This document shows positions 12,777 to 40,924 of a stretch of 64,000 nt of DNA, piece by piece. Within the stretch, counting starts at the first letter, position 1, and each line of letters begins with the position of its first letter. Made by a program: the position numbers and the translations under genes. The notes below the pieces were generated by a model, which was given only the letters and a program-made list of their open reading frames with translations, had not been told where the DNA came from and did not search any database. Origin of the DNA: Spartobacteria bacterium (GTDB lineage Bacteria > Verrucomicrobiota > Verrucomicrobiia > Chthoniobacterales > UBA6821); the NCBI GenBank assembly GCA_947487385.1, contig CANKWU010000007.1, forward strand, positions 7,894 through 71,893, given 5' to 3'.

Positions 12777-12795
12777 GCGGTAGTGTTTCTACCGC
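12777..12795 (-). terminator. Possible intrinsic terminator downstream of fabH
   Basis: GCGGTAG-tgttt-CTACCGC 7-bp stem. On the minus strand it is followed by TTCTCTCTCGCCTTGTT, which is T/C-rich and not a clean U-tract. Confidence 0.35.
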
Positions 12796-12848
12796 AAGTG
12801 ATTAGCAACGCCGCCCCGCGCCAAAATCCCAAGCCTTAGCCCAAAGGG

Positions 12849-19201: not shown

Positions 19202-20485
19202 TTAAAGAGTGGGCACCATTACGCGGATCAGCACGTTTGCGATCCCGCCGAGCAGGATAAGCGGAACAATGCTCACTTTCTTGGAGTGCAGCAAAAAGAA
19301 GGCGATCAGGGCTAGCAGTAGGGGAAGTGCTGAGGGTCGGCCTGAAGGCAGAAAGAGGGCCTCTGAAAACCAGAGGGCAAGGCAGGTCATCACAGACGTC
19401 ACCACAGCTCCTATTGCGGCAAGCCCGCCAGCCATGCGGGGATTCCGAGCAATCCCATCCAGATGGGGGGCCAGCGAAAAAATCCAAAGAAAGCTAGGCA
19501 GGAAAAGAGACCAGATGGCTGACAGGCTTCCCAATGTCGCGGAAAGTAGAGGTGACAGAATTCCCGGGGCCTTGTAGCAGCCCAGGAAAGCCACGAATTG
19601 CAGGGCGATCAGCAAAGGGCCAGGAGTTGTCTCGGCAAGACCTAGCCCGTCCATCATCTCCCCGGAGGAAAGCCATCCCCAGTCACCCGAGGCATGCAGT
19701 GAGACATAGGAGAGGGCCGCGTAGGCACCGCCGAAACTCAGCACCGCAACCTTGCCAAAGAAAAGTCCTACCTGAAACGGCATCGCCATGAACCCAAGCC
19801 AAAAGAACAGAGCCAGCATTGGAACCAGCCAAATTGCTAGAATGCTCAGGGCCATGCTTAGAGACGATAGGCAAGATCTCATCTGACTTCCCGACCTCGG
19901 TGGGGATTTCTCGGAGGACTCTTCCGGCGTCGAAGTTTTTTTCAGTAATAACCCCCCGATCAAACCGAATCCCAACACCACAACGGGATAGGGAATATGT
20001 GACAGAAAGAGACCAAAGGAAATCATGGCAATCAGTGCAAGCGGCCAACTGGTTATGGTCCGACGTGCGATCCTGAACAATGCAGAGGCAACGATCGCCA
20101 CCACAGCAGGCTTCAAGCCGTCAAAAAAGGAATGCATCAACGGCCAGTCGCGACCTGTCACATAGAGCAGACTTAGCACCCAGAGGAGTAGGACCGCAGG
20201 CAGAAGAAAGAGCACCCCGGCAGCGATTCCTCCCCGGATCCCGTGGAGACGCCACCCGAGATAGATGGCGAGTTGTTGGGCCTCCGGACCAGGCAGAAGC
20301 ATGCAAAATTGAAGAGCCCTCAGGAACTCGACTTCGTTGATCCATCCTCTTTTATCGACTACCTCGGCCTGGAGGATCGCGATCTGACCCGATGGCCCAC
20401 CGAAGCCGATACAGCCGATCTTTAACCAGAGACACACGGCCTCACCTAAGGTTGGCTTGGCTGGAGAGAGGTGGGCAACACCCAT
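19202..20485 (-). CDS. chrA: Chromate ion transporter (CHR family, two-domain)
   Basis: FGGPSGQIAILQAEVVDKRGWI in the first half and SFGGAYAALSYV in the second half mark the duplicated CHR domains. Confidence 0.8.
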   Translation of the reverse strand: MGVAHLSPAKPTLGEAVCLWLKIGCIGFGGPSGQIAILQAEVVDKRGWINEVEFLRALQFCMLLPGPEAQQLAIYLGWRLHGIRGGIAAGVLFLLPAVLLLWVLSLLYVTGRDWPLMHSFFDGLKPAVVAIVASALFRIARRTITSWPLALIAMISFGLFLSHIPYPVVVLGFGLIGGLLLKKTSTPEESSEKSPPRSGSQMRSCLSSLSMALSILAIWLVPMLALFFWLGFMAMPFQVGLFFGKVAVLSFGGAYAALSYVSLHASGDWGWLSSGEMMDGLGLAETTPGPLLIALQFVAFLGCYKAPGILSPLLSATLGSLSAIWSLFLPSFLWIFSLAPHLDGIARNPRMAGGLAAIGAVVTSVMTCLALWFSEALFLPSGRPSALPLLLALIAFFLLHSKKVSIVPLILLGGIANVLIRVMVPTL

Positions 20486-20507
20486 AACGGCTTGCTTTCG
20501 ACCCGTC

Positions 20508-23000
20508 TTATCCTTGGTTAAACAGCGGCAACTCTGCCGTCGGGTCGGGGGCTCCCTGCATCTTACGACGTGTTCCGGCCAGGGTTGGACGTCCCTCGGC
20601 GTTAAGTTCCGTTTTTTCCAGATTTGTCAGGATCTCCCACGCCCGTTCAATCACCGCGGGGGGAAGTCCCGCCAGACGAGCCACCTGGATGCCGTAGCTC
20701 CGGTCGGCTGCCCCTTGGATGATTTTTCTGAGAAAAATGATCCGGTCGTTCTGCTCCCGAACAGCAACATTCAGATTCCGAACGCCAGAACGTGTACGGG
20801 CAAGATCGGGGAGTTCATGGTAGTGGGTCGCAAAGAAGGTGCGGCATCCGGTGATATCATGCAGATACTCCGCGACGCTCCAGGCGATCGAAAGTCCATC
20901 GAAAGTCGCGGTGCCGCGTCCGATCTCATCCAGCAGGACAAGACTCCGGGAAGTGCCGTTGTGGAGAATATTCGCCGTCTCGTTCATCTCGACCATGAAT
21001 GTCGAATGTCCCCTCGAGAGATCGTCACTAGCTCCAACCCGGGTGAAGATCCGATCAGTCACACCGATCCGGGCCGACTTAGCGGGAATCCAACTTCCCA
21101 TCTGGGCCATAACGGTGAGAAGGCCGACCTGCCGAAGGTAGGTCGATTTACCGGCCATGTTCGGTCCGGTAATGATGCCCATGCGATGGTTGGCCGCATC
21201 GAGATCGGTGTCATTCGGCACAAAGGACTCTCCGCCGGCACGCTGATCGAGCACAGGATGACGCCCCTCGTGAATCTCGAGCATCATGGAATCATCCACC
21301 ACGGGACGGGCATAGCCAAAGAGTCGAGCCGTCTCTGCCAACGAGCAAAGGGTGTCGAGCGCACCTGCCGATGCTGCCGTTTCCTGCAGAGGTCTCACCT
21401 GATCCAGGACGGCGGAGCGGAGGCGTTGGAAAATTTCAATCTCGAGCGCTTTTGCCCTTTCCTCGGAACCGAGGATCCTACCCTCCATCTCCTTCAGCTC
21501 CGGGGTGATGAACCGTTCCCCTCCGGCTGTTGTCTGCTTGCGGGTGTAGTCGCCGGGAACGCTCCCAAGATTCGCCGTGGTGATCTCGATGAAATAGCCG
21601 AAGACAGCATTGAAACGGACTTTCAACGACTTGATCCCGGTGCGCTCAATCTCCGTTTCCTGCAACGCGGCAATCCAGCCCTTTCCCTCGGTGGAAGCAT
21701 TCCGGAGTTCATCCAGAGCAGCATCGAATCCAGCACGGATAATTCCTCCCTCGCGGATTGTGGGAGGAGGTTCATCGACAAGTGCGGATTGAAGAAGAAC
21801 GGTAAGTTCCGGAAGCAGATGGAGATGCTCCCCGAGTTCTCCTAGGAGGCTCCCTCCACACGAGGCAAGCGTTTCTCTAAGGGAAGGCAATGATCCCAAA
21901 GAAGAAGACAGAGTGGCAAGGTCGCGGGCATTGCCGGAATTCTGACTAAGTCGGGAGATGGAGCGCTCGATGTCACGGATTCCGCCGAGTTGATCGCGCA
22001 GATCGCCCAGCTTAATCTCTGAGGAGATCAGAAAACCTATGGCATCCTGCCGTCCGGTGATCGCGGCAGGATCAATTAACGGGCGCAGAACCCAGTCACG
22101 CAAGGTGCGGGCTCCCATCGGTGTAACGGTCTTGTCGAGCGCCCCGAGAAGGGTCATCCCCCGTCCGGCCCTCGAAGAGACAAGTTCCAGATGTCCCTGA
22201 GTGGAGGCATCCAGCAGAAGATGCTCGGCCTGCCGATAGCCCCTGAGGGAACGGAGATGCCCAGCATCGCGGCGAAGCGTGCGGGTCAAGTAATGGAGGA
22301 GAGCGCCGGCGGCGGTGATTCCAGACGGAATGTCATTCACGCCGAAGCCGTCCAAGGAGTGAACTTTGAAATGGGAAAGCAGTATCTCCTTCGAGGCCAT
22401 CGGATCGAAGAGATAGGTCTCCACCTCCTCGGGCTCAGCGAAACCAAGGGGCAACTCTTTCAATAAATTCTTACTCCCCTCGGGAACAAGAATCTCAGCG
22501 GGAGACATGCGCACCACCTCGTCTAAGACCGCCTCGGCGGAAGAGAGCTCCGTAATGTGGAACTCGCCTGTACTCAGGTCCGCACAGGCAAGGCCGAAGA
22601 GACCCCCTTCCTTGGCCGGGGGAAGAATTGCTGCGGTGAAATTATGACTTTTCTCCTCGAGTCCTGCATCTTCCAGGGTGCCTGGGCTGAGAATGCGGGT
22701 GATCTCACGTCGAACAAGTTTTCCTGGCTGGACCTCTCCCACTTGCTCGCAGAAAGCGACACGGCGACCGGCAGCAAGCAGCTTCTCCATGTAGCCGCGT
22801 GCCGCATGATAGGGGACGCCGCACATCGGCACGTCGCCGCGCTTCGTGAGTGCCACATTCAGGATCGCCGAGGCCTCCTTGGCATCGTCGAAGAACATCT
22901 CATAAAAATCACCGAGACGAAAAAGCAGGAACGTCCCCGGCGGTAGGTCGCGCCGCAGGGCGTGATACTGCTTCATCATCGGCGTTCCCTCGGCGGCCAT
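20508..23000 (-). CDS. mutS: DNA mismatch repair protein MutS
   Basis: TPMMKQYHALR at the N-terminus, Walker A GPNMAGKSTYLRQ, and STFMVEM. Confidence 0.95.
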   Translation of the reverse strand: MAAEGTPMMKQYHALRRDLPPGTFLLFRLGDFYEMFFDDAKEASAILNVALTKRGDVPMCGVPYHAARGYMEKLLAAGRRVAFCEQVGEVQPGKLVRREITRILSPGTLEDAGLEEKSHNFTAAILPPAKEGGLFGLACADLSTGEFHITELSSAEAVLDEVVRMSPAEILVPEGSKNLLKELPLGFAEPEEVETYLFDPMASKEILLSHFKVHSLDGFGVNDIPSGITAAGALLHYLTRTLRRDAGHLRSLRGYRQAEHLLLDASTQGHLELVSSRAGRGMTLLGALDKTVTPMGARTLRDWVLRPLIDPAAITGRQDAIGFLISSEIKLGDLRDQLGGIRDIERSISRLSQNSGNARDLATLSSSLGSLPSLRETLASCGGSLLGELGEHLHLLPELTVLLQSALVDEPPPTIREGGIIRAGFDAALDELRNASTEGKGWIAALQETEIERTGIKSLKVRFNAVFGYFIEITTANLGSVPGDYTRKQTTAGGERFITPELKEMEGRILGSEERAKALEIEIFQRLRSAVLDQVRPLQETAASAGALDTLCSLAETARLFGYARPVVDDSMMLEIHEGRHPVLDQRAGGESFVPNDTDLDAANHRMGIITGPNMAGKSTYLRQVGLLTVMAQMGSWIPAKSARIGVTDRIFTRVGASDDLSRGHSTFMVEMNETANILHNGTSRSLVLLDEIGRGTATFDGLSIAWSVAEYLHDITGCRTFFATHYHELPDLARTRSGVRNLNVAVREQNDRIIFLRKIIQGAADRSYGIQVARLAGLPPAVIERAWEILTNLEKTELNAEGRPTLAGTRRKMQGAPDPTAELPLFNQG

Positions 23001-23068
23001 GGTTTAGGTGATTAGTCTGAAGACTGAAGGCTAAAGGCTGTTCACGAGCCACTCTAAGAATATCGATC

Positions 23069-23857
23069 CTAGGAATTGAGGAAAGCTGTCAGAGGACTGG
23101 TCGCAATGGCATGCTCGGCGGCCATGGGCAATCCGGCAGCCACCGCTTCAGCGGCCCCCTCGACAGCCATCCGGAAAGCACGGGCCATGCGGACTGGATC
23201 ACCTGCGACGGCAATCGCGGTATTAACCAGTACGGCATCGGCCCCTAACTCCAAGGCCTCGGCTGCATGGCTAGGCGCTCCGATTCCCGCATCGACGATG
23301 ACAGGCACCGTCGCCTGCTCGATGATGATGGAGATTTGATGACGAGTCTCGAGGCCCCGGTTGCTCCCGATCGGTGAACCAAGCGGCATGACCGTCGCGG
23401 CTCCCGCTTCCTGCAGGCGCTTGGCCAGAACAGGGTCAGCATTGATGTAAGGAAGAACAGTGAACCCTTCAGCCACCAGCATCTCTGTCGCTTTCAGTGT
23501 CTCAATGGGATCTGGAAGCAGGTAGCGGGGGTCGGGATGGATCTCTAGCTTTACCCACTTCGGCAGACCTGCGGACGCGGAGAGGTGTGCCAGACGAAGA
23601 GCCTCCTCTGCCGTATTGGCGCCACTAGTGTTGGGAAGGAGGAGGTATTTCTCAGGGTCAATGAACTCCAGGATATTGGCAAAGGGATCTCCCTTCCCGG
23701 AGAGATCGGCACGGCGGAGCGCCACAGTAACGACCTGGGTGCCACTCGCGGCCAACGCCTCACTCATGACGGAGGCAGAGGAAAACTTTCCAGTTCCCAG
23801 AAAAAGGCGCGAGGAAAACTCACGCCCGGCAATGATCAGTGGCGATGCTGCAGACAT
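23069..23857 (-). CDS. thiG: Thiazole synthase
   Basis: [37 protein letters not shown] and VIVDAGIG are canonical ThiG motifs. Confidence 0.9.
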
Positions 23858-24126
23858 TTCCCCTATGCTATTGGTGAAGTGGCAACCCGTGCAAGAAACC
23901 CCGACAGTGGGAGTTTTAAATATGGTATTGCTTGCGTGCTAAAGCGTCAGGAACTCAAAAAGGGAATCTAGGCAACCGCTGAATCAATCTTAGCGAGGCG
24001 CGCTGCTTGGAATTCTGAAACTAAGGCAAGGTGATTGGGAGGGAGCGTGTGAAAATCTACCCCAACTCCTCTCCTCTCGCCAGCAGTGCACTTTTTGGAC
24101 AGCCTCTTACGGATCAACTTACCCCG

Positions 24127-26244
24127 ATGATATCCCTCAGAAAGTCTTTGGTTCCGCGATCCATCGGACAGCGTTTTGCATTGGCCATCGGGACCGGGGC
24201 CTCTGGCATCCTGATCGCACTAGCATTAGTGAATTTCATTAACGGGAGTGAGTTGCTCTTGAATCAAGCCTCACAAGAGGCGATCAGGCAGGTCCATAAT
24301 GAGATTGGCAACTGGGACGACCAAATCGAACGGATCGGAATGCTTCCGAGGGTCATCGGAGCAATCGAGGTAGATAGTCAAAGCCAGGTAACAATCCCCT
24401 TGCTGGCAACCCTGCTAAAACGTACCACCGGCAACAGCGTCTTCGGCCTTTACATGTATCGTGAGGATTTAGACTGGCATGATCCCAAGTCGTACAGCTG
24501 GGTTAACCTCAAGAGTTGGCCCAATGCCGCATCCCCTACATACCTTGCTTACGACTTTCATGATCCTACGCAAGATTGGTATCGGGGAGCGAAGGAGGGC
24601 AAAGGACTGCACGTTACTCTCCCCTATTTTGCTGCGGGCGGCTCAGAAATCAACATGATCAGCATCACTAAGGCTGTACGCGATCCCTCCGGAAAATTCA
24701 TTGGAGTGGCAGGAGCCGATGTTTCCATGGAAGAAATGGAAAAGATGATCCGGGAGATGGATCTCCGTGATTTTGGGACAAATCGTTTTGTTAAAAACGA
24801 TGATCCCAAGAGTGCTAACTCAACAAGGATGGAGAAATATCCCGTCCAATCCTCCTACCTGATCTCAAAAACAGGCGCAGTGATCATCGGTCCCGGAATC
24901 GAAACAGAAAAGAGGGCTCGCAAACCGGGGTATCAGCATCCTGAAGAAAGCATGGAAACCCTTGCTGACCATGGCCTGCAACTCGCCCCTGAACATCTCT
25001 CGCAGATTCTCTCCACAGAGACCGGTTGGCTGCGTGTCGAACAAAATGGAGACAAGCTGATTTGTTGGGCTCAAAGCAAGATTACCGGATGGAAACTTAT
25101 TCGATCGGTTCCCTACAGCATGATCATTGCGCCAGCCAGTCACTTGGCATCGGAATCTCTTGTGATTGGAGGGGTCGGGCTTTTTGTGCTGATCGGTGTC
25201 GTGTTCTTCACTGCTCGCAGGATCTCGGAACCGATCACATCACTCCAGTCCGTCGCCACAAACTTTGAGCGCGGTTCCTATGATAAAGGGAGAGATGTAC
25301 TCAGCCGGATCGAAAAACGCCCCGACGAGCTGGGTCGGTTTGCCAAGAGCTTCTCCGCCATGGCGCAGGAAATCCACCTGAGGGAAGAGAGACTCTCGGA
25401 GTGGAACACCAACCTGGAAGTGACGGTGAAAGAACGAACTTCCGATCTGGCTGCCGCCATGTCCAAAGTCGAGAAAGTGAATGCCGCCATGGAGGCTGAA
25501 CTTGCAGAGGCAGCAGCTTACTCCCGTGCCGTACTGCCTGGGAAACTGACCACGCCCGTCACCACCGACTGGGTATTCATCTCTTCTTCGCAGCTCGGTG
25601 GGGATTCCTTCGGTTATCACTGGATCGACGACGACACCTTCTCCCTTTATCTGCTCGATGTCTGCGGTCACGGCGTGGGGGCGGCCTTGCTCTCCACTAG
25701 CGTGGTGAATGTCCTCCGCTCCTCCTCCCTTGCTGACACAAACTTCCTAGATCCTGCAAATGTTCTTGCTCAACTGAATGCCGCTTTCCCGATGGAGCGG
25801 CATAACGACATGTATTTTACTGCCTGGTATGGAGTCTACACCCTCTCCAACGGCACCCTGCGCTTCGCCTGCGGCGGACACCCTCCCGCCGTGCTCGTTG
25901 CGCCGGATGGAACGATCTCCAATTTGACTGCCAAGGGCACCGTCGTAGGGGCCTTCCCCAATCCCACCTACGAAACGGCTTCGACTGAAGTAACGCCGGG
26001 CTCCAGACTCTATCTTTTCAGTGACGGAACCTATGAAATCGATCGCCCCGACTCCACAATGATGACCCATCAGGAGTTTTCCGAAATCCTCAAAGCTCCC
26101 GTCACAACAGGAACTTCCAAACTGGAAACTGTTGTCATGGAGGTGCGGAAACAGCAGCAAAAGGAGGCCTTCGCGGATGATTTCTCATTGGTGGAGTTTC
26201 TCTTCCCCGATCACAACATCCCTCCCACGGCCTCCTCGGAGTGA
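24127..26244 (+). CDS. Membrane sensor: periplasmic Cache-like domain + HAMP + PP2C/SpoIIE serine phosphatase (RsbU-like), kinase domain lost
   Basis: Two TMs flank an extracytoplasmic domain of about 300 aa. An HAMP/coiled coil follows (RPDELGRFAKSFSAMAQEI), then a SpoIIE-type phosphatase (GGDSFGYHW...LLDVCGHGVGAALLS...LYLFSDG). The start is taken at ATG 24127 by alignment with the paralog. Confidence 0.8.
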   Translation: MISLRKSLVPRSIGQRFALAIGTGASGILIALALVNFINGSELLLNQASQEAIRQVHNEIGNWDDQIERIGMLPRVIGAIEVDSQSQVTIPLLATLLKRTTGNSVFGLYMYREDLDWHDPKSYSWVNLKSWPNAASPTYLAYDFHDPTQDWYRGAKEGKGLHVTLPYFAAGGSEINMISITKAVRDPSGKFIGVAGADVSMEEMEKMIREMDLRDFGTNRFVKNDDPKSANSTRMEKYPVQSSYLISKTGAVIIGPGIETEKRARKPGYQHPEESMETLADHGLQLAPEHLSQILSTETGWLRVEQNGDKLICWAQSKITGWKLIRSVPYSMIIAPASHLASESLVIGGVGLFVLIGVVFFTARRISEPITSLQSVATNFERGSYDKGRDVLSRIEKRPDELGRFAKSFSAMAQEIHLREERLSEWNTNLEVTVKERTSDLAAAMSKVEKVNAAMEAELAEAAAYSRAVLPGKLTTPVTTDWVFISSSQLGGDSFGYHWIDDDTFSLYLLDVCGHGVGAALLSTSVVNVLRSSSLADTNFLDPANVLAQLNAAFPMERHNDMYFTAWYGVYTLSNGTLRFACGGHPPAVLVAPDGTISNLTAKGTVVGAFPNPTYETASTEVTPGSRLYLFSDGTYEIDRPDSTMMTHQEFSEILKAPVTTGTSKLETVVMEVRKQQQKEAFADDFSLVEFLFPDHNIPPTASSE
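25480..25849 (+). repeat. Near-identical 370-bp block shared with 28236..28605 (gene-conversion tract)
   Basis: By manual alignment at constant offset 2756 there are 4 mismatches in 370 bp. The flanking homologous sequence is clearly more diverged. Confidence 0.85.
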
Positions 26245-26270
26245 ATGCCTAACTAAGAAAGCGTTAACTC

Positions 26271-26385
26271 ATCGAATCTCTCCGCGAGAGGAACCAAATG
26301 CCATCCGCTTCAGCGACCGTGGCAATGCGTTCAACCTGCTTGATCGGGACGCAGTCGAGGCAGACAAACCCGATCGAGCGATTTC
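26271..26385 (+). pseudogene. Fossil of an RsbW-like HATPase_c kinase domain (out of frame, after the stop of the upstream gene)
   Basis: The segment is alignable to 29169..29273 of the paralog. It translates in another frame to AIRFSDRGNAFNLLDRDAVEADKP, against ITIRFSDHGNPFNPLDRDEVDTDKP in the intact copy. Confidence 0.8.
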
Positions 26386-26736
26386 CTAGGCCACTGAGGA
26401 GCCGATCGCAACGAGTGCCTCGTCCCGCGTAGCGCAGACGGGATACGCGGTCTCAAACTGAGCGATATCGAAAATTCTTTTCACAGAAGGCTGGAGGGCA
26501 CAAACGGCCAAACCCCCACCGACCCGCTGCAACTGCCTCCCAAGCAGGAAGAACTCGCGAAAACCAGCACTACTCACGTACTCAAGACCAGCTAGGTCGA
26601 ACACAACACCTTTAGAGCCACATGACTCGATCTCCTTAGCCACGGAGTCCTTGATCATGTTCTGCTCGGTTGCATCAAGACGCCCTTTGAGTACTACGAC
26701 AAGGATGGGACCGGCTTTTTCGAATTGCAAATCCAT
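26386..26736 (-). CDS. STAS-domain anti-sigma-factor antagonist (RsbV/SpoIIAA-like)
   Basis: 116 aa. VVVLKGRLDA...VVFDLAGLEYVSSAGFREF places the phosphorylatable Ser in the D-x-x-x-x-x-x-S-S-x-G context. Confidence 0.85.
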   Translation of the reverse strand: MDLQFEKAGPILVVVLKGRLDATEQNMIKDSVAKEIESCGSKGVVFDLAGLEYVSSAGFREFFLLGRQLQRVGGGLAVCALQPSVKRIFDIAQFETAYPVCATRDEALVAIGSSVA

Positions 26737-26867
26737 AATTCAGATTAACTCAAAACGCTCCGAGGTCAAGTACTGCTCTCTCAATGTGTCGCAAGCAGAG
26801 GCAAACAGCGCCTGAGCATCCGCTTGGCATTGACCCATGGATAAACTATCACTTGCCTAAGAAGCAA

Positions 26868-29411
26868 ATGTCCATGCTCTCTCTGAAACATTATCTAACA
26901 CCCCGATCAATCGGGCAGCAGTTCGCCCTCACCATCGGAGCCGGAGCAGGTGTGATCCTGATCGTCTTGGCAGTAGCCAACTACATCAGTGGCAGGGAGC
27001 TGCTTCTCCAGCAAACTTCACAGGAGGCACTCCGGGCGGTAAATGACGAGATCAACACGATGGATGATCTCGTCGAGAAGATGGCGATGTATCCCGAGGT
27101 CATCGCCGCCACAGAACTCTCCGGCACGAATAACGAGGGAGTTAAGGTTCCATGGCTCTCCTCTCTGCTCGTGCACTCGCCGATGCCTGCCATCTACGGG
27201 GTCTACATGGCCAGAGATTCCAAGCACTGGCAGGATCCCGATTCCGACCCGTGGGTTGACCGCAAGAGCTGCCCAAATCCGGCACACCTGAAGTACGACT
27301 TCCATGATGAGAGTCAGGACTGGTACATCGGGGCAAAGGAGGACAAAAGACTCCATGTGACTCAGCCTTATTTTGATGCGGGAGGCTCAGACATCGACAT
27401 GATCAGCATTACCAAGCCCGTTTACTCAGACGAAGGAACCTTCGTTGGGGTGGCAGGCGTCGATGTGGCTCTGGACGAAATGCGAAAAATCGTCCGGAAA
27501 ATTAACATTAGGGATTATGAAACGGATCTGACTCAGGGCGATGGGGGCGGCAAGGTCACCCTCTCTCCGAAGAGTCAGACCGTGGGTGTGCAGGAACCGC
27601 ATGAAACGGCCTATCTGGTCTCCCAAAGTGGCGCGATCATCGTCAGTCCCGAGACATCGCAGGAAAAACCTGCTTCGAAATCTGGCGAACAGGATCCGAC
27701 CAAGGCCCTGGAAGACCTGCTCAGCAACGGACTGGTCACCAGCGTTCCCGGCATCCAGAAGATTCTGGCCTCGGACAGCGGATGGCAGCGCCTCAAGGAT
27801 GGAAGTAACAAGGTGATTTACTGGGCCAAGGGCAGGACCACCGGATGGAAACTGGTGCTGGAAGTGCCTTACGAACTCATCGTGGCTCCGGCCAGAAAAT
27901 TAGCAGAACAGTCGGCGATCATCGGTGGGGCGGGGCTTTTTGTGCTGATCGGTGTCGTGTTCTTCACATCCCGCAGGGTTTCGGAGCCCATTACCGAGCT
28001 TCAGACCGTGGCTACCTCGTTTGAGAAAGGAAGCTATGACGGCGGGGCGGGGATTCTGGAACGGATCGAAAAACGCCCCGACGAGCTGGGTCGGTTTGCC
28101 AAGAGCTTCTCCGCCATGGCGCAGGAAATCCGCCTGAGGGAAGAGCGTCTCTCGGAATGGAATGCCAATCTCGAACAGACAGTCAAGGACCGCACCGCCG
28201 ACCTCGCCGCAGCCATGGAGAAGGTCAAGACGGTCAATGCCGCCATGGAGGCGGAACTTGCAGAGGCAGCAGCTTACTCCCGTGCCGTACTGCCTGGGAA
28301 ACTGACCACGCCCGTCACCACCGACTGGGTATTCATCTCTTCTTCGCAGCTCGGTGGTGATTCCTTCGGTTATCACTGGATCGACGACGACACCTTCTCC
28401 CTTTATCTGCTCGATGTCTGCGGTCACGGCGTGGGGGCTGCCTTGCTCTCCACTAGCGTGGTGAATGTCCTCCGCTCCTCCTCCCTTGCTGACACAAACT
28501 TCCTAGATCCTGCAAATGTTCTTGCTCAACTGAATGCCGCTTTCCCGATGGAGCGGCATAACAACATGTATTTTACTGCCTGGTATGGAGTCTACACCCT
28601 CTCCACCGGCATCCTACGCTTTGCCAGCGGTGGTCACCCTCCCGCCGTATTGATCGCTCCAGACGGAAACGTGCTTCATCTCTCAGCCAAGGGCGCGGTC
28701 GTGGGAGCCTTCCCCAAGCCCATCTACGAAACGGCTTTGACTCAAGTTGTGCCGGGCTCCAGACTCTATCTTTTCAGTGACGGAACCTATGAAATCGATC
28801 GCCCCGACTCCACAATGATGACGCACGAGGAATTCTCCATTATCCTCAAGGATCCTGTTGCAACAGGAACCCGTAAACTGGAATCTGTCGTCATGGAGGT
28901 GCGACAACAGCAGCAAAAGGAAGCCTTCGCTGATGATTTCTCATTGGTGGAGTTTCTCTTCCCCGATAACCAGCCTGCGTCCCATGGGGTCCTCCGATTG
29001 AAGGCCGAACTTAGCGAACTGACACGACTCCACCCGTTTCTCACCTCCTACTGCGAGAAAGAAGGTACCCCTACGGAGCAGATCTTCGACTTCGAGGTCA
29101 TCCTCGAGGAACTCGTCACCAATGTCATCAAATACGGTTGTGTTCAGGCCGGGAAGGAATGCTGCCTCATCGAACTTCTCCGCGAGGGAAACCAAATCAC
29201 CATCCGCTTCAGCGACCATGGCAATCCGTTCAACCCACTTGATCGGGACGAAGTCGACACAGACAAACCGATTGAGGAACGCGAGATCGGAGGCCTCGGC
29301 ATCCACTTCATCAAGAATCTCACCGACTCACAGAGCTACGAATACAAGGATGGAATGAACATCCTCACTCTCAACGTAACATTCACTACTTTAGCTAATG
29401 TTGATGCCTGA
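26868..29411 (+). CDS. Membrane sensor: Cache-like + HAMP + PP2C/SpoIIE phosphatase fused to C-terminal RsbW-like serine kinase (HATPase_c)
   Basis: Architecture matches 24127..26244. It adds a C-terminal domain of about 140 aa with an N-box EELVTNVIKYG, DHGNPFNP and GGLGIHFIKNL. Confidence 0.8.
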   Translation: MSMLSLKHYLTPRSIGQQFALTIGAGAGVILIVLAVANYISGRELLLQQTSQEALRAVNDEINTMDDLVEKMAMYPEVIAATELSGTNNEGVKVPWLSSLLVHSPMPAIYGVYMARDSKHWQDPDSDPWVDRKSCPNPAHLKYDFHDESQDWYIGAKEDKRLHVTQPYFDAGGSDIDMISITKPVYSDEGTFVGVAGVDVALDEMRKIVRKINIRDYETDLTQGDGGGKVTLSPKSQTVGVQEPHETAYLVSQSGAIIVSPETSQEKPASKSGEQDPTKALEDLLSNGLVTSVPGIQKILASDSGWQRLKDGSNKVIYWAKGRTTGWKLVLEVPYELIVAPARKLAEQSAIIGGAGLFVLIGVVFFTSRRVSEPITELQTVATSFEKGSYDGGAGILERIEKRPDELGRFAKSFSAMAQEIRLREERLSEWNANLEQTVKDRTADLAAAMEKVKTVNAAMEAELAEAAAYSRAVLPGKLTTPVTTDWVFISSSQLGGDSFGYHWIDDDTFSLYLLDVCGHGVGAALLSTSVVNVLRSSSLADTNFLDPANVLAQLNAAFPMERHNNMYFTAWYGVYTLSTGILRFASGGHPPAVLIAPDGNVLHLSAKGAVVGAFPKPIYETALTQVVPGSRLYLFSDGTYEIDRPDSTMMTHEEFSIILKDPVATGTRKLESVVMEVRQQQQKEAFADDFSLVEFLFPDNQPASHGVLRLKAELSELTRLHPFLTSYCEKEGTPTEQIFDFEVILEELVTNVIKYGCVQAGKECCLIELLREGNQITIRFSDHGNPFNPLDRDEVDTDKPIEEREIGGLGIHFIKNLTDSQSYEYKDGMNILTLNVTFTTLANVDA
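28236..28605 (+). repeat. Partner of the 25480..25849 near-identical block
   Basis: See 25480..25849. Confidence 0.85.
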
Positions 29412-29657
29412 TCGCTCGAGAGGAGAGCGAAGCGAGGCTTTAGTGGTTCCCTGGTAGAGCTTGATCCCACTTCCTCGGTCTCACAAATCCAATGAACTTC
29501 CTCACCCAGTTGCGAAAAAGTCATACTTCCCCGCAACGATGCTGCGGGAGAACGGGCCTTGTGAAATCTTCCCCACCTCTCATCCCACATCGCATCGGAT
29601 ATGGGAGAACTCTGTGGAACCTTGGAAATCAACGAGTTATCACTCATCTTTTAAAAT

Positions 29658-29698
29658 AACACATGTGTTCCATTAGTGCAATATAATGACATGTCATT
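29658..29698. promoter_or_regulatory. Two perfect palindromes with a shared ACATGT core flanking a TATAAT hexamer
   Basis: AACACATGTGTT lies at 29658-29669, TATAAT at 29682-29687 and AATGACATGTCATT at 29685-29698. This is 23 nt upstream of the first gene of the AT-rich block. Confidence 0.35.
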
Positions 29699-29720
29699 CT
29701 AAAATACGTTCGCTTCAAAA

Positions 29721-30131
29721 ATGATCCTTCGATACACGGCAGTATCTATCTTCGCGACCTGCTTGGTTACTGGCTGCGATGAGTCCGTGCCACTGAATTA
29801 CTCCACTCGCGCTGATGCCAATGCCGAGAGCCTTTTCGCACGAGGATGGCTACCTGAGATTATTCCGCCATCGAGTCGCAACATTTCCATGCGCAACGAA
29901 CTCGACCTGAATATCTCGAACGGTGAGTTCAGTTTCGAGCAGTCGGATCATGACGCATTCGTGACCCAGCTTGAGAGAGAGTCATCACGGGACGAGGGTG
30001 GGTCTCTCGCCTATGTCTATCACGAATGGACCTTCTGGATCAATGGCGACAAGAACCACTGCCGATTTCACATGCGCCTCACCCGGAACAAAAAACAAAG
30101 CGAACAAGACGGCACATCCAACGGCGGGTAA
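29721..30131 (+). CDS. Small lipoprotein, unknown function
   Basis: The signal peptide plus lipobox is AVSIFATCLVTGC. No family recognised. Confidence 0.6.
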   Translation: MILRYTAVSIFATCLVTGCDESVPLNYSTRADANAESLFARGWLPEIIPPSSRNISMRNELDLNISNGEFSFEQSDHDAFVTQLERESSRDEGGSLAYVYHEWTFWINGDKNHCRFHMRLTRNKKQSEQDGTSNGG

Positions 30132-30165
30132 CCTCCTTCTTTGAATTCGGGCTTCACTCTCCTCC

Positions 30166-30888
30166 GTGGATGGCCTAGACGTTCGGCTGAAAAATCTTCC
30201 TATGCCCCTAACTCAATCCTATTCGCGCGTTAAAGACGGTGTCGTGCAAGTCCTCGCCCTGAACGGCTCAACGCTTGTATCCTTCGGATCAGGTTCGGTT
30301 ATCGACGATGGATGCAAGGTTCTGACCTGTGAGCATTGCGTGATTGCTGGCACGCAGGCAGCTATCGCAGACCCAAGGAACCCAGGACGAGCACTTTTCG
30401 GTAATGCGATCTTTGTGGACAAGGCCAACGATATCGCCGTGCTAGAATTTCCAAATCCTGTCGGCACGGCTGTCGAACTCGTGAATAGCTCGAAATGTCA
30501 GATTGGGAATGGTGCCTTTGTAGTTGGATTCCCAATGGGGGTGAACGAACAAACGCTCTTTTCTGCTCACATTGCTAGCATCACTGGAAGTCACCTCCGT
30601 ATTGATGCGTCAGTGAACCACGGCAACAGCGGTGGGCCGCTTTTTGACCTCGATGGCAGGCAGATCGGCATCGTGAACGCGAAACATGGCTCACTTTCGC
30701 AGTTTCTTACACAGGTGAAGGATGCCAAGCCTGGTGCGATGATGAGTATTGGAGGGATTGATCCAGTGAAAACAATTCAAGTGCTGATACAAGAAATGCA
30801 GAAGAATCTGAATTTGGGTATTGGTTACGCAGTTCCGACCGAGAAGATAAAACCACTTCACGCCATCCTCACAAAGTGTGTTAAATAA
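30166..30888 (+). CDS. Trypsin-like (S1/S1C) serine protease without PDZ domain
   Basis: The triad context is LTCEHCV (His), NDIAVLEF (Asp) and NHGNSGGPLF (Ser). The start may be GTG 30166 or ATG 30187. Confidence 0.75.
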   Translation: MDGLDVRLKNLPMPLTQSYSRVKDGVVQVLALNGSTLVSFGSGSVIDDGCKVLTCEHCVIAGTQAAIADPRNPGRALFGNAIFVDKANDIAVLEFPNPVGTAVELVNSSKCQIGNGAFVVGFPMGVNEQTLFSAHIASITGSHLRIDASVNHGNSGGPLFDLDGRQIGIVNAKHGSLSQFLTQVKDAKPGAMMSIGGIDPVKTIQVLIQEMQKNLNLGIGYAVPTEKIKPLHAILTKCVK

Positions 30889-30892
30889 ACTC

Positions 30893-30951
30893 GCCGAACA
30901 AGTCGGTGGAGGCAACCGGCATTCGCCGGTGCCTCACCTCTGCCGTTAGCC
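30893..30951 (+). repeat. attC-like element A (59 bp)
   Basis: GCCGAAC-aagtc-GGTG(G)AGGC-a-ACCGGC-attc-GCCGGT-GCCTCACC-tctgcc-GTTAGCC. The outer boxes resemble RYYYAAC / GTTRRRY with one mismatch each. The spacers are 5 and 6 nt, the left arm has a bulged G, and no T-run follows. Confidence 0.55.
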
Positions 30952-30963
30952 TAAAACCTACAC

Positions 30964-31596
30964 ATGATGCCATCGCTTAGCGTAGCAATTTCACTTATCG
31001 CACTAGGCGTGTCGGTAATTACGGCTTGGCTTACATTTTTTCGTCGAGGTAGGCTTGTAATGACGCAGCCGACGCTGGTGTTTTTCGGGCCAGACGGACC
31101 TCAGTTCATCGGAAAAAATAAAATATACCTTCGAACACTAATATATTGCACGGCTAAGCGTGGAATTGTAATTGAGAGCCTTCACGTGACAGTGCAGAGA
31201 AACGAGTCGAAACAGAACTTCAATATATGGGTATATGGAGACAATGGAGATCTGAAGAGAGGAAGCGGTATTTTCGTCCCACAGGAGGGAATTACATTCG
31301 ACCACCATTTTCTACAACCAGCAGACGGCTCTAACTTTAAATTTAAAGCAGGTGCATACAGACTGACGGTTTTAGCCAAGCTCGTAGGTGAAGAAACTCC
31401 TAAAGAGCTGATGACGATAAAGCTCTCAATAAGTGAGTCGCAAGAACTTGCGCTTTCAAGCCCGCAAACAGCTATCTTTTTCGACTGGGGACCTGATCAG
31501 CAAAACTATCATCCTCATATTCGAAACGGCATGGATATCGATTCGGATATGAAGAAACTCATAGAATCATTTGATAAAATAAAAGGAAAAGGCTAA
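30964..31596 (+). CDS. Hypothetical single-pass membrane protein
   Basis: N-terminal TM (SLSVAISLIALGVSVITAWLTFF) followed by a soluble domain that looks beta-rich. No family recognised. Confidence 0.55.
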   Translation: MMPSLSVAISLIALGVSVITAWLTFFRRGRLVMTQPTLVFFGPDGPQFIGKNKIYLRTLIYCTAKRGIVIESLHVTVQRNESKQNFNIWVYGDNGDLKRGSGIFVPQEGITFDHHFLQPADGSNFKFKAGAYRLTVLAKLVGEETPKELMTIKLSISESQELALSSPQTAIFFDWGPDQQNYHPHIRNGMDIDSDMKKLIESFDKIKGKG

Positions 31597-31648
31597 CCAA
31601 GCGATGCAGCGAACGCCCTTCGGTCGTCGCTGATCTTGCACGTTAAAT
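31591..31648 (+). repeat. attC-like element B (58 bp)
   Basis: GGCTAAC-caagc-GAT(G)CAGCGA-acgcccttcggtcg-TCGCTGATC-ttgcac-GTTAAAT. The right box is a perfect GTTRRRY. The stop codon TAA of the upstream gene lies inside the left box. Spacer and bulge geometry match element A. Confidence 0.55.
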
Positions 31649-31665
31649 AACTCCAAGCTTTTCCT

Positions 31666-32163
31666 GTGCTAATTAGCCCATTGGCAGATGTTCCAGCGGC
31701 CATTCCTACGATGGCAAAATGGTTCTATGATGAATGGCACACCTTTGATGGTCGTTCCATCGATCAGATCACTGCCCAACTTTCAGATAATCTCAACCGC
31801 CATTCACTCCCTATCACCTTTGTGGCACATGAGAATCTTGAGATCATGGGGACTGTTTCCCTCGATATTTCGGATCTTCCGGAATTTGACTGCTATTCTC
31901 CTTGGCTCTCATCGCTCTATGTCCATGAGGGCCATCGAGGCAAAGGCGTTGCCTCTACTCTTGTCAGTCATCTCAAGCATTTTGCATGCTCAGGTGGAGT
32001 CACTCCCTTATACCTCTGGACTCCTGGCTCTACATCCCTCTACGAGCGATTAGGATGGTTTGAGATTTCAAGAAGATCTTACCGATATAAGGATATCACT
32101 ATCATGAGTTATGCCGGTTTGCATGGGTGTTCTGTACATAGTGTCGCTCAGCTCCTACGTTGA
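31666..32163 (+). CDS. GNAT-family N-acetyltransferase
   Basis: The acetyl-CoA motif A is HEGHRGKGVASTLV. The start may be GTG 31666 or ATG 31711. Confidence 0.75.
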   Translation: MLISPLADVPAAIPTMAKWFYDEWHTFDGRSIDQITAQLSDNLNRHSLPITFVAHENLEIMGTVSLDISDLPEFDCYSPWLSSLYVHEGHRGKGVASTLVSHLKHFACSGGVTPLYLWTPGSTSLYERLGWFEISRRSYRYKDITIMSYAGLHGCSVHSVAQLLR

Positions 32164-32169
32164 GGAAAA

Positions 32170-32583
32170 ATGAATATTCATTACGAAACTAATCGTGCGA
32201 TTTCTGAGCATGAATTTATCGACCTGCTTCGTCGCTCGACGTTAGCCGAACGTCGCCCCATTGATGACGCAAACTGCGTGAAAGCGATGCTTCATCATGC
32301 AAATTTGCTCTGTACTGCGTGGGACGGTACGGCGTTGGTTGGTGTAGCCCGCTCTGTTACCGATTTTGAGTATTGCTGTTACTTATCTGATTTGGCGGTT
32401 GACCAAGACTATCAGAAGAAGGGGATTGGTCGTGCGTTGATCCGACTGACACAGTCAAAGCTAGGGAAGCGAGCGAAGTTGATTCTCCTGGCGGCACCGA
32501 AGGCCGAAGCTTATTACCCTCAGATTGGGTTCGAGGCGCACCGATCCGCATGGCTTATCCCCGCTATCCAAGAACTAAAATAA
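32170..32583 (+). CDS. GNAT-family N-acetyltransferase
   Basis: Motif A is DQDYQKKGIGRALI. A GAGG sits 8 nt upstream of the ATG, and the gene is only 6 nt from the previous GNAT stop. Confidence 0.8.
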   Translation: MNIHYETNRAISEHEFIDLLRRSTLAERRPIDDANCVKAMLHHANLLCTAWDGTALVGVARSVTDFEYCCYLSDLAVDQDYQKKGIGRALIRLTQSKLGKRAKLILLAAPKAEAYYPQIGFEAHRSAWLIPAIQELK

Positions 32584-32593
32584 AAATCACGAA

Positions 32594-32635
32594 GCCAAAC
32601 CAGGCGTTAAAACATAACGCCCACGGACGTTAGCC
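32594..32635 (+). repeat. attC-like element C (short/degenerate)
   Basis: GCCAAAC-ca-GGCGTTA-aaaca-TAACGCC-cacggac-GTTAGCC. The right box is identical to that of element A, but the spacers are asymmetric (2 and 7 nt) and the length is only 42 bp. Confidence 0.3.
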
Positions 32636-32851
32636 TAATTCCTCAGCCAAGGCGGGGAAGTTTGGATGCAGGACATGACGGCTTGGAACCAAGCCTCAGG
32701 GAAGAGGCGCGGGAGACGGCCTCCCGGCAGCCCTACAGAGAGGGACTGCTTGCCGGAAGCAAGTTTGCCGTCAAAAGCCCATTAGTCATCCTACGCCGAC
32801 CGTAGGCCAACGCTGCTATCCGCCGATATCGCGAGCGCCTTCCCTTGCCAC

Positions 32852-34264
32852 TTAGATCTTGCGGAGCTGAATCGAATCAAACTTCTCATCCCCCTCAACG
32901 ATGTCGCTCATCACGATGAGCTGATCACCTTTGTTCAGGAGGCCACGGGAAAGAAGAAGTTCTTCTGCCTTTTTGACAGATTCCTCGGGAGTCGCCCCGA
33001 ATGGCATCACGAGCGGCATGACGCCCCAGTTGAGCGTGAGATGACGGGCCGTCACTTCCGAAGGGGTGATGGCGTAGATGGTTGCGTGCTCGGGACGGAT
33101 GTGGCTGGTGTAGTCGGCCATGTCGCCGTGGCGGGTCAAGACGGCAATGCTGGCATTCGCAAAGGAGTTAGCCAGCACGACACCGGAGTGTGCGGTCTTC
33201 TGGCGGGGAGTCAGCAGGGAGGTCTGCTCGGCAAAGTGGGCGCTGCCGCTACGCTCAATACGACGTGCGATCCGGTCGAGGACCTTCACGCAATCGATGG
33301 GATATTTCCCGACGGTAGTTTCTCCACTGAGCATGATGGCATCAGCCTGCTCAAAGACTGCGTTGGCGACATCGGTCACCTCGGCGCGGGTCGGGACAGG
33401 ATTTTCGATCATCGACTCCAGCATGTGCGTGGCGACAATGACCTGCTTGCCGATCTTAAGAGCTATCTTGAGAATCTTGCGCTGGATGATGGGCAGTTCC
33501 TCCATCGGGCATTCGATGCCGAGATCTCCACGGGCGATCATGACGGCATCGGTCTCCTTGATGATCTCGGCGATCAGCTTGACGGCGCTCTGATCCTCGA
33601 TCTTCGCGATGACGCGGGCCTTGCTGTTATGGAGAGCCAACACACGGCGCATCTCGACGACGTCCGAAGGTTCGCGACAGAAACTCAGGGCGACAAAGTC
33701 GACGCCCACCTCGGTGCCGACAGCAATATCAGCAAGGTCTTTTTCCGTGAGGGGGGGGAGATTGACCTTCACTCCCGGCAGATTGATATGCCTGCGGGAA
33801 CCAAGCGCTCCCGGTGTGAGTACCTCGCAGCGGATACGGTTATTGATCTTGGAAAGAACCTTGAGATGGATGACGCCATTGTCCACAAGGACCACGTCCC
33901 CCTCGTTGATGTCGTCGATCAGGCCGTCGTAGTTAACGTTGACGGAATAGAGCTCCTCACTGCGGGCACCACGGACGGTGAACTCCATGATGTCCCCAAC
34001 CTTGAGATTAAGTTTCGTCGGGAGGTCGCCGGTGCGGACAGCAGGACCCTGTGTGTCGAGGAGGATACCTACCGGCATATCAAGCTCGGCAGCGATCCCC
34101 CTGATGGTCGGGACGATCTGGCGCACCCAATCATGCTGGGCATGGCTCATGTTGAGCCTGAAGATATTGGTTCCAGCCAGGATCATCTCGCGAAGACGCT
34201 CCGGAGACTCGGTCGCAGGGCCTAGGGTACAGATAATTTTGGTTTTACGAAGAGCAATGGTCAT
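32852..34264 (-). CDS. pyk: Pyruvate kinase
   Basis: RKTKIICTLGPA, NMSHAQH and MIARGDLGIE. The start is taken at ATG 34264 (MTIALRKTKI). Confidence 0.9.
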   Translation of the reverse strand: MTIALRKTKIICTLGPATESPERLREMILAGTNIFRLNMSHAQHDWVRQIVPTIRGIAAELDMPVGILLDTQGPAVRTGDLPTKLNLKVGDIMEFTVRGARSEELYSVNVNYDGLIDDINEGDVVLVDNGVIHLKVLSKINNRIRCEVLTPGALGSRRHINLPGVKVNLPPLTEKDLADIAVGTEVGVDFVALSFCREPSDVVEMRRVLALHNSKARVIAKIEDQSAVKLIAEIIKETDAVMIARGDLGIECPMEELPIIQRKILKIALKIGKQVIVATHMLESMIENPVPTRAEVTDVANAVFEQADAIMLSGETTVGKYPIDCVKVLDRIARRIERSGSAHFAEQTSLLTPRQKTAHSGVVLANSFANASIAVLTRHGDMADYTSHIRPEHATIYAITPSEVTARHLTLNWGVMPLVMPFGATPEESVKKAEELLLSRGLLNKGDQLIVMSDIVEGDEKFDSIQLRKI

Positions 34265-39065: not shown

Positions 39066-40050
39066 ACGTCTCAGCATTTTTCTGGCGCTTGCGGGGATCC
39101 TCGCAGTCACCCTGCTCGTGTTCCGACTGAAGAAAGCCCCGCCAACACCAATCCCCTTGGTTGAACCGTCACGAGCACCCTATGCCGACTCCATCGGGGC
39201 TCGCGGGATCGTTGAGGCGGTCAATGAGAACGTCATTGTTGCACCGATTCTGCCAGGGATGATCACGGATATCTACGTGCACGTCGGGGACTTGGTGAAA
39301 AAGGGAGCCCCCCTCTTCCGACAGGATACCCGTGATGCTGGGGCTAAAGTCAGCGCCCAGCAGGCTCAAGTCGCACTCTTGGAAGCGCGCGTCAAGGAAT
39401 CGGAGGTGCGGGTAGCCGACAAGCAGGATGATCTGGCGCGAGCTGACCGACTCCTCTCGCAGAGGGTGATTAGCGACGATGTGCAGCGGAGGAAGTATTT
39501 TGAACTTAAGTCGGCAGAGTCCTCCCTTGACTCCGCGCGCGCAGAACTCCTCCTGGCTCGCGCCCAGTTGACTCAGGCGGAAGTGACGCTCGATCTGCTC
39601 ACCGTTCGAGCACCGCGAGATGGCGAGATCCTCCGGCAGAACATGCATGAGGGGGAATACGCGGGGGTCGCTTCTTCCGATCAGAACACTCCCTCCCTAC
39701 TGCTTGGGGAAACGACGCACCTGCAGCTCCGTGCCGACGTGGATGAGGATAGTGCTTCACGAGTCCAGACGGGAGCTGTTGCCGTGGCCTACATCAAGGG
39801 GATGCACTCTGATCCCATCCCTCTCCGCTTCGTCCGGATCGAACCCTACATCACCGTGAAGAAGTCGCTCACCGGCGATAGTAGCGAGCGCGTCGACACC
39901 CGCGTCCTTCAGGTGATCTACCAGTTCGACAAGACCAAGGTGCCCGTCTATGTGGGCCAGCAGATGGATGTCTTTATCGAGGGTAAAGCCCCTAAGGATC
40001 CGCAACGCGAGAACGACAAAAAGATCCTTCTCACGCCTAAGTCATCCTGA
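39058..40050 (+). CDS. HlyD-family periplasmic adaptor (DevB-like)
   Basis: 8-nt overlap with the ATPase gene. It has an N-terminal TM, a lipoyl-like hairpin (GDLVKKGAPLFRQD), a coiled coil and a beta-barrel. Confidence 0.8.
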   Translation: MLKRLSIFLALAGILAVTLLVFRLKKAPPTPIPLVEPSRAPYADSIGARGIVEAVNENVIVAPILPGMITDIYVHVGDLVKKGAPLFRQDTRDAGAKVSAQQAQVALLEARVKESEVRVADKQDDLARADRLLSQRVISDDVQRRKYFELKSAESSLDSARAELLLARAQLTQAEVTLDLLTVRAPRDGEILRQNMHEGEYAGVASSDQNTPSLLLGETTHLQLRADVDEDSASRVQTGAVAVAYIKGMHSDPIPLRFVRIEPYITVKKSLTGDSSERVDTRVLQVIYQFDKTKVPVYVGQQMDVFIEGKAPKDPQRENDKKILLTPKSS

Positions 40051-40146
40051 GCCTGGTAAAGTCCCTCAGCCAAATGGTGTGAAGGCAAATTAACATTCAC
40101 CGGTTTTATCAGCGGAATGAGTGGGAGAGACGCCCTGCACCTACCC

Positions 40147-40872
40147 TTAAGACTTGCCGGAAAAAGGTAATTTACCTCGGACTGCTATTGGAGAACCTTC
40201 GGCAAGAAAAATGGAACTCGGCGGATAAGATAGACTTTCGACAAAAGCATTTCCATAAAGTTTGGAAACGTCTGCGTCTAATTCGTAATCAGTACATTGC
40301 TGAATATTCCAGCGTGGATGTTCCACCTGAAATTCGCAACCTTCCCGAGACTGAGCGTTATAACCCCAGTAGTGCTCAGTAATGAACTCTTCTTCCGAGC
40401 CAACCGCTATTGCCCCTAAAGGACCTACTCCCGTAGCTCGAACTGATTCCCATTGATGATTTCTTTTCCAGGAATATTCAATCCGGACTCCTGATTCGGT
40501 CACACCGATGTGGTGTTTCATCGGCAGAGCTCGATAGGGCTCACCGTAGAAAGTACGTGCAGTAAAGGCAATCGCCCACTTGGGAACCAATTCGCTGACA
40601 AAAACTACTCCCCGTCGCCAGGAATTCTTGATTTTACGCCGAACATAAAATCTTAAATTCACCTCTTCAAAATCTTTGTGAAAGGGAAATGTGAACCCCA
40701 GAACCCGAGTCTTGATGAACCTAAATCCAACGATGCTCAGATACGTTTTATTATCAAAGAAGTCCAACTCAGTACCTGAAGGCACAAGTGGCTTCAGGAC
40801 AGCAGGATCGACCACATAATTAGCCATTAAAAGGTGCCTCCATTCGGCAGTGAGGAATAGGGAAGTTTTCAA
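40147..40872 (-). CDS. DUF2071 (YqjF-like) family protein
   Basis: LFLTAEWRHLLMANYVVDPAVLKPLVPSGTELD matches my recollection of the DUF2071 N-terminus. Confidence 0.6.
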   Translation of the reverse strand: MKTSLFLTAEWRHLLMANYVVDPAVLKPLVPSGTELDFFDNKTYLSIVGFRFIKTRVLGFTFPFHKDFEEVNLRFYVRRKIKNSWRRGVVFVSELVPKWAIAFTARTFYGEPYRALPMKHHIGVTESGVRIEYSWKRNHQWESVRATGVGPLGAIAVGSEEEFITEHYWGYNAQSREGCEFQVEHPRWNIQQCTDYELDADVSKLYGNAFVESLSYPPSSIFLAEGSPIAVRGKLPFSGKS

Positions 40873-40924
40873 GGGCTACCCTTAAGTCCAGTTGAGCGAT
40901 CGTGAGATGTCGATTAAGAGTTTT

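Follow-up and report, generated by a model that had tools for sequence, protein, structure and literature searches.

We analyzed a 64,000-nucleotide stretch of the Spartobacteria bacterium contig CANKWU010000007.1 (positions 7,894 to 71,893; hereafter the window), focusing on three small co-oriented genes at window positions 29721-31596, which code for a lipoprotein, a trypsin-like protease and a membrane protein. Our analysis indicates that these are very probably three independent single-gene integron cassettes, which together with a downstream segment of two GNAT acetyltransferase genes form a small array without a nearby integrase, i.e., a CALIN (cluster of attC sites lacking an integron-integrase). 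The three proteins are unrelated cargo, neighbors by chance in this strain. The original prediction for this DNA, made from its sequence alone, had likewise proposed integron-type cassettes with cargo of uncharacterized function, and in this respect our results agree with it; however, it had further joined the lipoprotein and the protease as a pair on a single cassette, a proposal that the evidence below does not support.

One line of evidence comes from the cassette boundaries. In each of the three cassettes, a heptamer of the form GTTNNNN is situated 13-21 nt before the ATG, and its exact reverse complement recurs in the attC site at the far end of the same gene (Table 1). This complementarity is as expected of a cassette cycling through a circular intermediate. 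Using window-wide heptamer counts, we estimate the joint chance of all three exact 7-nt complement pairs at about 4 × 10−7. The same rule holds in comparison loci from elsewhere (here given L numbers), namely in the protease cassettes of L087 (GTTCGCT/AGCGAAC) and Gallaecimonas L084 (GTTAGGC/GCCTAAC), in the first cassette of L179, a close relative of the window considered below, and in the membrane-protein cassette of Rheinheimera L174, which features the same pair as the window (GTTAGCC/GGCTAAC). The original prediction saw no attC-like element between the lipoprotein and protease genes; one is nevertheless present, spanning 30099-30187, with its left core (AGCGAAC, 30099) embedded in the coding tail of the lipoprotein, where it encodes a tripeptide 'SEQ' common to many relatives, and its right core (GTTCGGC) at 30181. 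Thus, since an attC can hide in the 3' end of a coding region, adjacency within a cassette array is no evidence of a functional pair, and a tempting misreading of neighboring array genes is thereby corrected. In relatives of the lipoprotein, AGCGAAC or a close variant recurs 3' of the coding region, and GTTCGCT is also found 10-15 nt upstream of the ATG in five of them (L096, L097, L098, L099 and L102).

The predicted bottom-strand folds of 30090-30184, 30889-30955 and 31586-31655 all display the layout of attC sites, with paired cores, unpaired spacers and a bulged inner stem. In the first of these, the site between the lipoprotein and the protease, the unpaired spacers are 4 nt long and the inner stem carries two bulged bases on the expected arm. 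The fold energies are −12.5 kcal/mol (z −1.3) for the attC of the lipoprotein cassette, −16.6 kcal/mol (z −3.2) for that of the protease cassette, the only one of the three with significant stability, and −10.8 kcal/mol for that of the membrane-protein cassette. The homologous site in L096, where the lipoprotein gene is 82% identical and the cassette is followed by a different, unrelated gene, folds at −20.7 kcal/mol (z −3.8) and thereby lends support to the lipoprotein site of the window.

A second line of evidence comes from L179, recovered from a different metagenome, which matches the window at 98% identity over 19875-29506 and at 97.6% identity from 31645 on; between the GTT core at 29708 and position 31644, it instead has two different genes coding for proteins of 106 and 190 aa, the first of which is bounded by GTTCGGC ... 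GCCGAAC ... GTTAGCC. The breakpoints coincide with GTT cores, and we therefore conclude that the array has turned over at core sites between very close strains. An integrase-less array in an uncultured aquatic bacterium here provides a record of cassette turnover among strains that are 98% identical. The non-coding leader ahead of the first cassette is about 87% conserved in L179 over 29572-29712, with 29507-29571 unaligned there (a 66-nt gap). It holds a perfect palindrome, AATGACATGTCATT, at 29685-29698, 10 nt upstream of the first GTT core and with one change in L179. The palindrome may serve to bind a protein or may belong to an attI-like site, and the leader as a whole may be an attI-like or a secondary insertion site.

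We then found that the three genes travel separately. The family motif RGWLPxxxP recovered 78 metagenomic lipoprotein loci, 47 of them with at least 700 nt of downstream sequence; a protease relative was present in none of the 78. The lipoprotein relatives in L088-92 stand alone, and only three near-identical contigs (L093-95) repeat the arrangement of the window. Conversely, the lipoprotein is absent from seven other, independent contexts of the protease (L081/82, L083, L084/85, L086, L087, L178 and L180). The upstream neighbor of the protease differs in every context, being a PIN gene, a 242-aa open reading frame (ORF), a 77-aa ORF or nothing at all. In L083 (Litorivicinus), the protease lies behind the PIN gene, both within one GTTAGGC...GCCTAAC unit with an internal half-site, which looks like two cassettes fused by attC decay; here (4981-6687), only the 5' half of an attC is left between the two genes. 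In L084/85 (Gallaecimonas), it forms one cassette of an array whose small genes share one orientation and are divided by attC sites, in L086 it lies beside a Mu-like early region, and in L180 (81% identical) it is found between the unrelated 77-aa ORF and a Fic gene. In L087 (84% identical), it sits between rpe and a deaminase gene, and DNA similarity to the window is limited to the interval that opens about 20 nt ahead of the ATG and closes at the left attC core. Hence, the pairing of lipoprotein and protease on one cassette, as originally proposed, is not borne out: co-conservation of the two genes was not found elsewhere, and a recombination site lies between them. The membrane protein has an itinerary of its own. 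Its homologue is the first cassette beside the integron integrase of Rheinheimera sp. A13L (TIGR02249, 411 bits against a cut-off of 265), and the family is also found on Yersinia ruckeri plasmids. A further copy, 76-78% identical, occurs singly in L175 (5880-6560), with an alcohol dehydrogenase gene on one side and a 361-aa gene on the other. With its 5' core decayed to ATTAGCC and its attC shrunk to GGCTAAC-AGTT-GTTAGCG, the lone membrane-protein cassette of L175-177 has the look of a fossilized single cassette.

A functional two-gene module of lipoprotein and protease on one cassette, be it of an envelope, defense or toxin-like nature, is very unlikely. The two genes are indeed adjacent, co-oriented and just 70 nt apart, the attC between them is weakened in this strain, three near-identical contigs retain the pair, and cassettes can fuse by attC decay, as the PIN-protease unit of L083 illustrates. 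Against this, the genes do not co-occur in the 78 lipoprotein loci, the seven protease contexts or L088-92, the attC between them remains recognizable with a boundary complementarity of its own, and the protease has a different upstream neighbor wherever it is found. Moreover, judging from their N-termini, the two proteins are predicted to reside in different compartments, the lipoprotein having a signal peptide for export and the protease having no export signal. We consider it highly improbable that the block has nothing to do with integrons and is an ordinary chromosomal islet, variable between strains, or a small operon, in which GTT motifs and hairpins coincide by accident. Such an islet would sit well with the lack of an integrase within 64 kb, with two cores that depart from the GTTRRRY consensus, with two hairpins that are not significantly more stable than shuffled sequence, and with the many spurious AAC...GTT candidates that our scanner returned elsewhere in the window. 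On the other hand, it would leave unexplained why all three cassettes here, and four elsewhere, show exact complementarity over 7 nt between their boundaries, why strain breakpoints coincide with GTT cores, and why the same gene families turn up in a classical array and next to a true integron integrase.

Several observations do weigh against an array of independent cassettes. The L179 comparison removes the lipoprotein and the protease together and does not separate them at this locus. The attC between these genes is thermodynamically unremarkable (z −1.3); compared with L096, pairs are missing from its distal stem, and the site may recombine poorly, such that both genes could now move together. 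While GTTAGCC and GTTAAAT fit GTTRRRY, GTTCGCT and GTTCGGC have a C at position 4; given its recurrence at the start of five related cassettes, GTTCGCT looks like a lineage variant. The GNAT segment (31642-32635) breaks the boundary rule, with no ATTTAAC present. As to method, the attC sites were recognized by boundary logic, folding and comparative genomics rather than by a calibrated attC covariance model, and our pattern- and energy-based scanner was non-specific, with 147 candidates across the window, such that only its heptamer positions were used. Finally, the inspection covered 64 kb, and an integrase may be present elsewhere in the genome.

Within the window, no tyrosine-recombinase motif and no tblastn match with the Rheinheimera IntI were found, and no intI adjoins the array, the upstream gene being an rsbU-like phosphatase. 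The idea that an antisense ORF of 103 aa (29336-29647, minus strand), overlapping the phosphatase end and the leader, is what remains of an integrase was rejected: the ORF shows neither similarity to IntI nor a match to any family and is not retained as an ORF in L179. It is probably not a gene. If the block is a cassette array, its cassettes would move as circles through integrase-mediated recombination at the G/TT of folded attC sites; recombination of circular cassettes is established integron biology. The integrase would act here in trans or would have acted in the past. In this reading, each cassette is a promoterless gene that starts 13-21 nt after its GTT core and has its own attC hairpin at the end. 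The plus strand of 29300-32900 yielded no terminator-like or sigma-70-like site; because of this, read-through from the co-oriented upstream gene appears to be the likeliest mode of expression of the array.

All three ORFs are present as originally described (29721-30131, 136 aa; 30166-30888, 240 aa as read; 30964-31596, 210 aa), and they are genuine genes, with many relatives and strongly conserved alignments; at E ≤ 1e-3, their products retrieved 299, 56 and 483 relatives, the last count being that of the membrane protein. The motifs that had been pointed out in them, namely LVTGC in the lipoprotein and CEHC, NDIAVLEF and GNSGGPLF in the protease, are likewise there. The view that none of the three matches a nameable family holds for the 210-aa protein, and fails for the protease, which is an HtrA-like protein with a Trypsin_2 domain, and for the lipoprotein, which has PF26610 (YbbD_head) as its recorded annotation.

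The lipoprotein has a signal peptide followed by the lipobox VTGC (LVTGC in the ORF), as seen in MILRYTAVSIFATCLVTGC, and is probably periplasmic. Of 19 aligned relatives, at least 90% have the lipobox Cys, and an Asp at position +2 after the lipid-modified Cys is likewise conserved. In Escherichia coli lipoproteins, an Asp at +2 is the signal for retention in the inner membrane. PF26610 is the precomputed annotation of this exact protein and of 54 of 56 relatives; our local copy of Pfam, presumably without this model, gave no match. A weak match to the NCBIfam model PRK09781 (E 6e-5) is far under the cut-off, and a literature search for YbbD_head or PF26610 returned no useful paper. The AlphaFold model (mean predicted local distance difference test score, pLDDT, 80.5) found nothing convincing among solved structures, the best match being TP0453 (E 0.04). 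Profile searches against PDB sequences gave no match for either the lipoprotein or the membrane protein, and PADLOC, PHROGs and NCBIfam have no family for either of them. Among the genomic neighbors of lipoprotein relatives are PSCyt and PSD genes, and one relative is labeled Verrucomicrobia.

The protease was originally read as a 240-aa protein, which is too long. As nearly all its relatives are 228 aa in length and begin with MPLTQ, its start is the ATG at 30202 and not the GTG at 30166, which falls within the attC-like site upstream. Pfam recognizes only Trypsin_2/Trypsin in it (residues 38-176; Trypsin_2, 1e-18), and the family profile matches the protease domains of DegQ and DegP at E of about 1e-22, with the terminal GIGxAIP strand included; GNSGGPLF proved unspecific as a search pattern, matching generic HtrA genes. 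An intact triad without a PDZ domain, as previously described, is confirmed: His45, Asp77 and Ser143 do not vary across the 26 aligned relatives, Pfam detects no PDZ, and the protein stops 20 residues past the protease domain. Equally invariant (26 of 26 aligned members) are Cys43 and Cys46, which flank the catalytic His in a CxHC motif (TCEHC, window 30328-30339) and could make the active site subject to a redox or metal switch. Further, an insertion of about 45 aa precedes the final GIGYAIP strand and takes the place of the short L2 loop of HtrA. Inspection of the N-terminus, MPLTQSYSRVKDGVVQV, by eye revealed no hydrophobic stretch or export signal, in keeping with the earlier statement that the protein has no signal peptide or obvious transmembrane segment. 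With neither a PDZ domain nor an export signal, it is probably a catalytically active cytoplasmic endopeptidase.

One possibility that is compatible with the cassette array is that the 228-aa protease works on its own as an effector in conflicts between phages and hosts or between elements, acting in defense or counter-defense and remaining latent until triggered; we entertain this tentatively and regard it as somewhat unlikely. The family is found in integron cassettes across phyla at 50-80% identity. In two diverged Mu-like elements, L178 (5001-5702) and L086 (6001-6714), whose respective B, GemA and Mor proteins are 30-37% identical between the two, a full-length relative directly follows the gene for the Mor activator. 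Others are found between the large terminase and the portal in the siphovirus-like L183-186 (e.g., L186 4001-4684), phages that also encode their own HK97-type head maturation protease; the family is also found in an island that carries recombinases, ParDE and a PIN gene. In addition, the domain resembles the RT-Protease_XI defense models of PADLOC (E 2e-14). Conversely, PADLOC gave no full-length match to a known defense family, only matches confined to the generic protease domain; neither a sensor domain nor a partner can be discerned, and no protease relative was found among 72,556 plasmids. PADLOC also gave no match for the lipoprotein or the membrane protein. Thus, the accessory positions in phages and the likeness to RT-Protease_XI hint weakly at a plausible role of the protease in phage-host conflict. 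It is doubtful, if conceivable, that the protease represents an uncharacterized single-gene conflict module common to the cassettes of several phyla and to Mu-like and siphovirus-like phages, with the 210-aa family separately constituting a membrane-associated module. A literature search for protease cassettes returned nothing useful. Both families are widespread, highly conserved cassette-borne cargo and, as such, reasonable candidates for functional screens of integron cassettes, which are now under way (bioRxiv 10.1101/2024.07.02.601719; 10.64898/2026.03.17.712381).

The AlphaFold model of the 210-aa membrane protein (pLDDT 76) shows a helix at residues 3-26, in line with the N-terminal anchor proposed for it, followed by a β-sandwich and a C-terminal helix. 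Basic residues immediately after the first helix suggest, by the positive-inside rule, that the β-sandwich domain faces the cytoplasm. Fold searches returned generic Ig-like or β-sandwich matches only. The family comprises 865 clusters at 50% identity, with a mean column identity of 72%, and no Pfam model covers it. It may be an uncharacterized membrane-associated enzyme or binding module spread by integrons and unusually conserved across phyla. Some relatives (P0334, P0342, P0375, P0382, P0395 and P0402) are 330-416 aa long, with an extra C-terminal β-rich region in which Pfam detects no domain.

The block is bounded by the rsbU-like phosphatase gene and a pyruvate kinase gene (Table 1), and its G+C content (0.45-0.51 across 29-33 kb) is below that of the flanks (about 0.55-0.58). 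No attC was recognized between the two GNAT genes, which are 6 nt apart, and the hairpin that closes the segment ahead of GTTAGCC (32629) is shorter than usual. In L179, the gene preceding the GNAT segment abuts it without a hairpin. Upstream, the window has two paralogous Cache-HAMP-SpoIIE (PP2C) sensor phosphatase genes in tandem (24031-29411), with about 83% DNA identity over 1.2 kb; the second also has an anti-sigma-type kinase domain, and the two are separated by a STAS-domain gene on the minus strand (26386-26736). Together, these look like a partner-switching signaling module. Two further 1-kb stretches (12001-13000 and 40001-41000) have a G+C content of about 0.46, well under the window average, and the only Rfam match in the window is a single tRNA gene (61564-61635).

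Table 1. Features of the putative cassette array and its surroundings, in window coordinates, with the core pair of each cassette
Feature	Position	Strand	Remarks
Cache-HAMP-SpoIIE-HATPase (rsbU-like sensor phosphatase) gene	ends 29411	+	bounds the block upstream; co-oriented with the array
Non-coding leader between rsbU-like gene and first cassette	29412-29707	+	holds palindrome AATGACATGTCATT
Core site GTTCGCT	29708-29714	+	left edge of lipoprotein cassette; L179 homology stops here
Lipoprotein cassette, core pair	29708 and 30099		5' core GTTCGCT; exact reverse complement AGCGAAC in own attC
Lipoprotein gene, 136 aa	29721-30131	+	signal peptide, lipobox; annotated as PF26610 YbbD_head
attC-like site of lipoprotein cassette, 89 nt	30099-30187	+	AGCGAAC ... 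GTTCGGC; distal stem partly decayed
Protease cassette, core pair	30181 and 30893		5' core GTTCGGC; exact reverse complement GCCGAAC in own attC
Protease gene, 228 aa (corrected start ATG)	30202-30888	+	PDZ-less HtrA-like S1 domain
attC of protease cassette	30893-30951	+	GCCGAAC ... GTTAGCC
Membrane-protein cassette, core pair	30945 and 31591		5' core GTTAGCC; exact reverse complement GGCTAAC in own attC
Membrane protein gene, 210 aa	30964-31596	+	N-terminal helix, β-sandwich, C-terminal helix; without Pfam family
attC of membrane-protein cassette	31591-31648	+	GGCTAAC overlaps stop codon; right end GTTAAAT
Two GNAT acetyltransferase genes	31666-32163, 32170-32583	+	also present in strain L179
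Terminal attC-like hairpin, short, uncertain boundaries	32590-32635	+	ends GTTAGCC (32629)
Pyruvate kinase gene	from 32852	opposite	bounds the block downstream

Among known systems, the cargo proteins can be placed as follows. The lipoprotein shares the Pfam annotation YbbD_head with almost all its relatives, a family that carries no attached function. The protease resembles HtrA, DegP, DegQ and DegS (MEROPS S1C) in its triad, its GNSGG oxyanion motif and its terminal GIGxAIP strand; in contrast to these, it is only 228 aa long, lacks a PDZ domain, a signal peptide and a membrane anchor, and features the insertion of about 45 residues and the invariant CxHC, which HtrA proteases do not have. 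Its likeness to RT-Protease_XI, in which a reverse transcriptase is fused to a trypsin-like protease, extends over profile positions 340-491 of 506, i.e., the protease domain only, and unlike that system, it has no reverse transcriptase.

The array itself is comparable to the CALIN of Cury et al. (2016, PMC4889954), who reported integrons in Verrucomicrobia as well as in Proteobacteria: they share at least two attC sites, the absence of a nearby intI, fewer than six cassettes and cargo without characterized homologues. It differs from them in that its sites are not called by the IntegronFinder model and in that two of its cores are GTTCGCT and GTTCGGC instead of GTTRRRY. Small integrase-less clusters (SALIN, single attC sites lacking an integron-integrase, and small CALIN) have been proposed to arise by direct insertion of cassettes at secondary sites, attG (Loot et al., bioRxiv 10.1101/2022.09.11.507474). 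The array studied here is alike in being a small integrase-less cluster that is flanked by housekeeping genes and not accompanied by a transposable element, whereas its conserved 300-nt leader with the palindrome could instead be a remnant attI.

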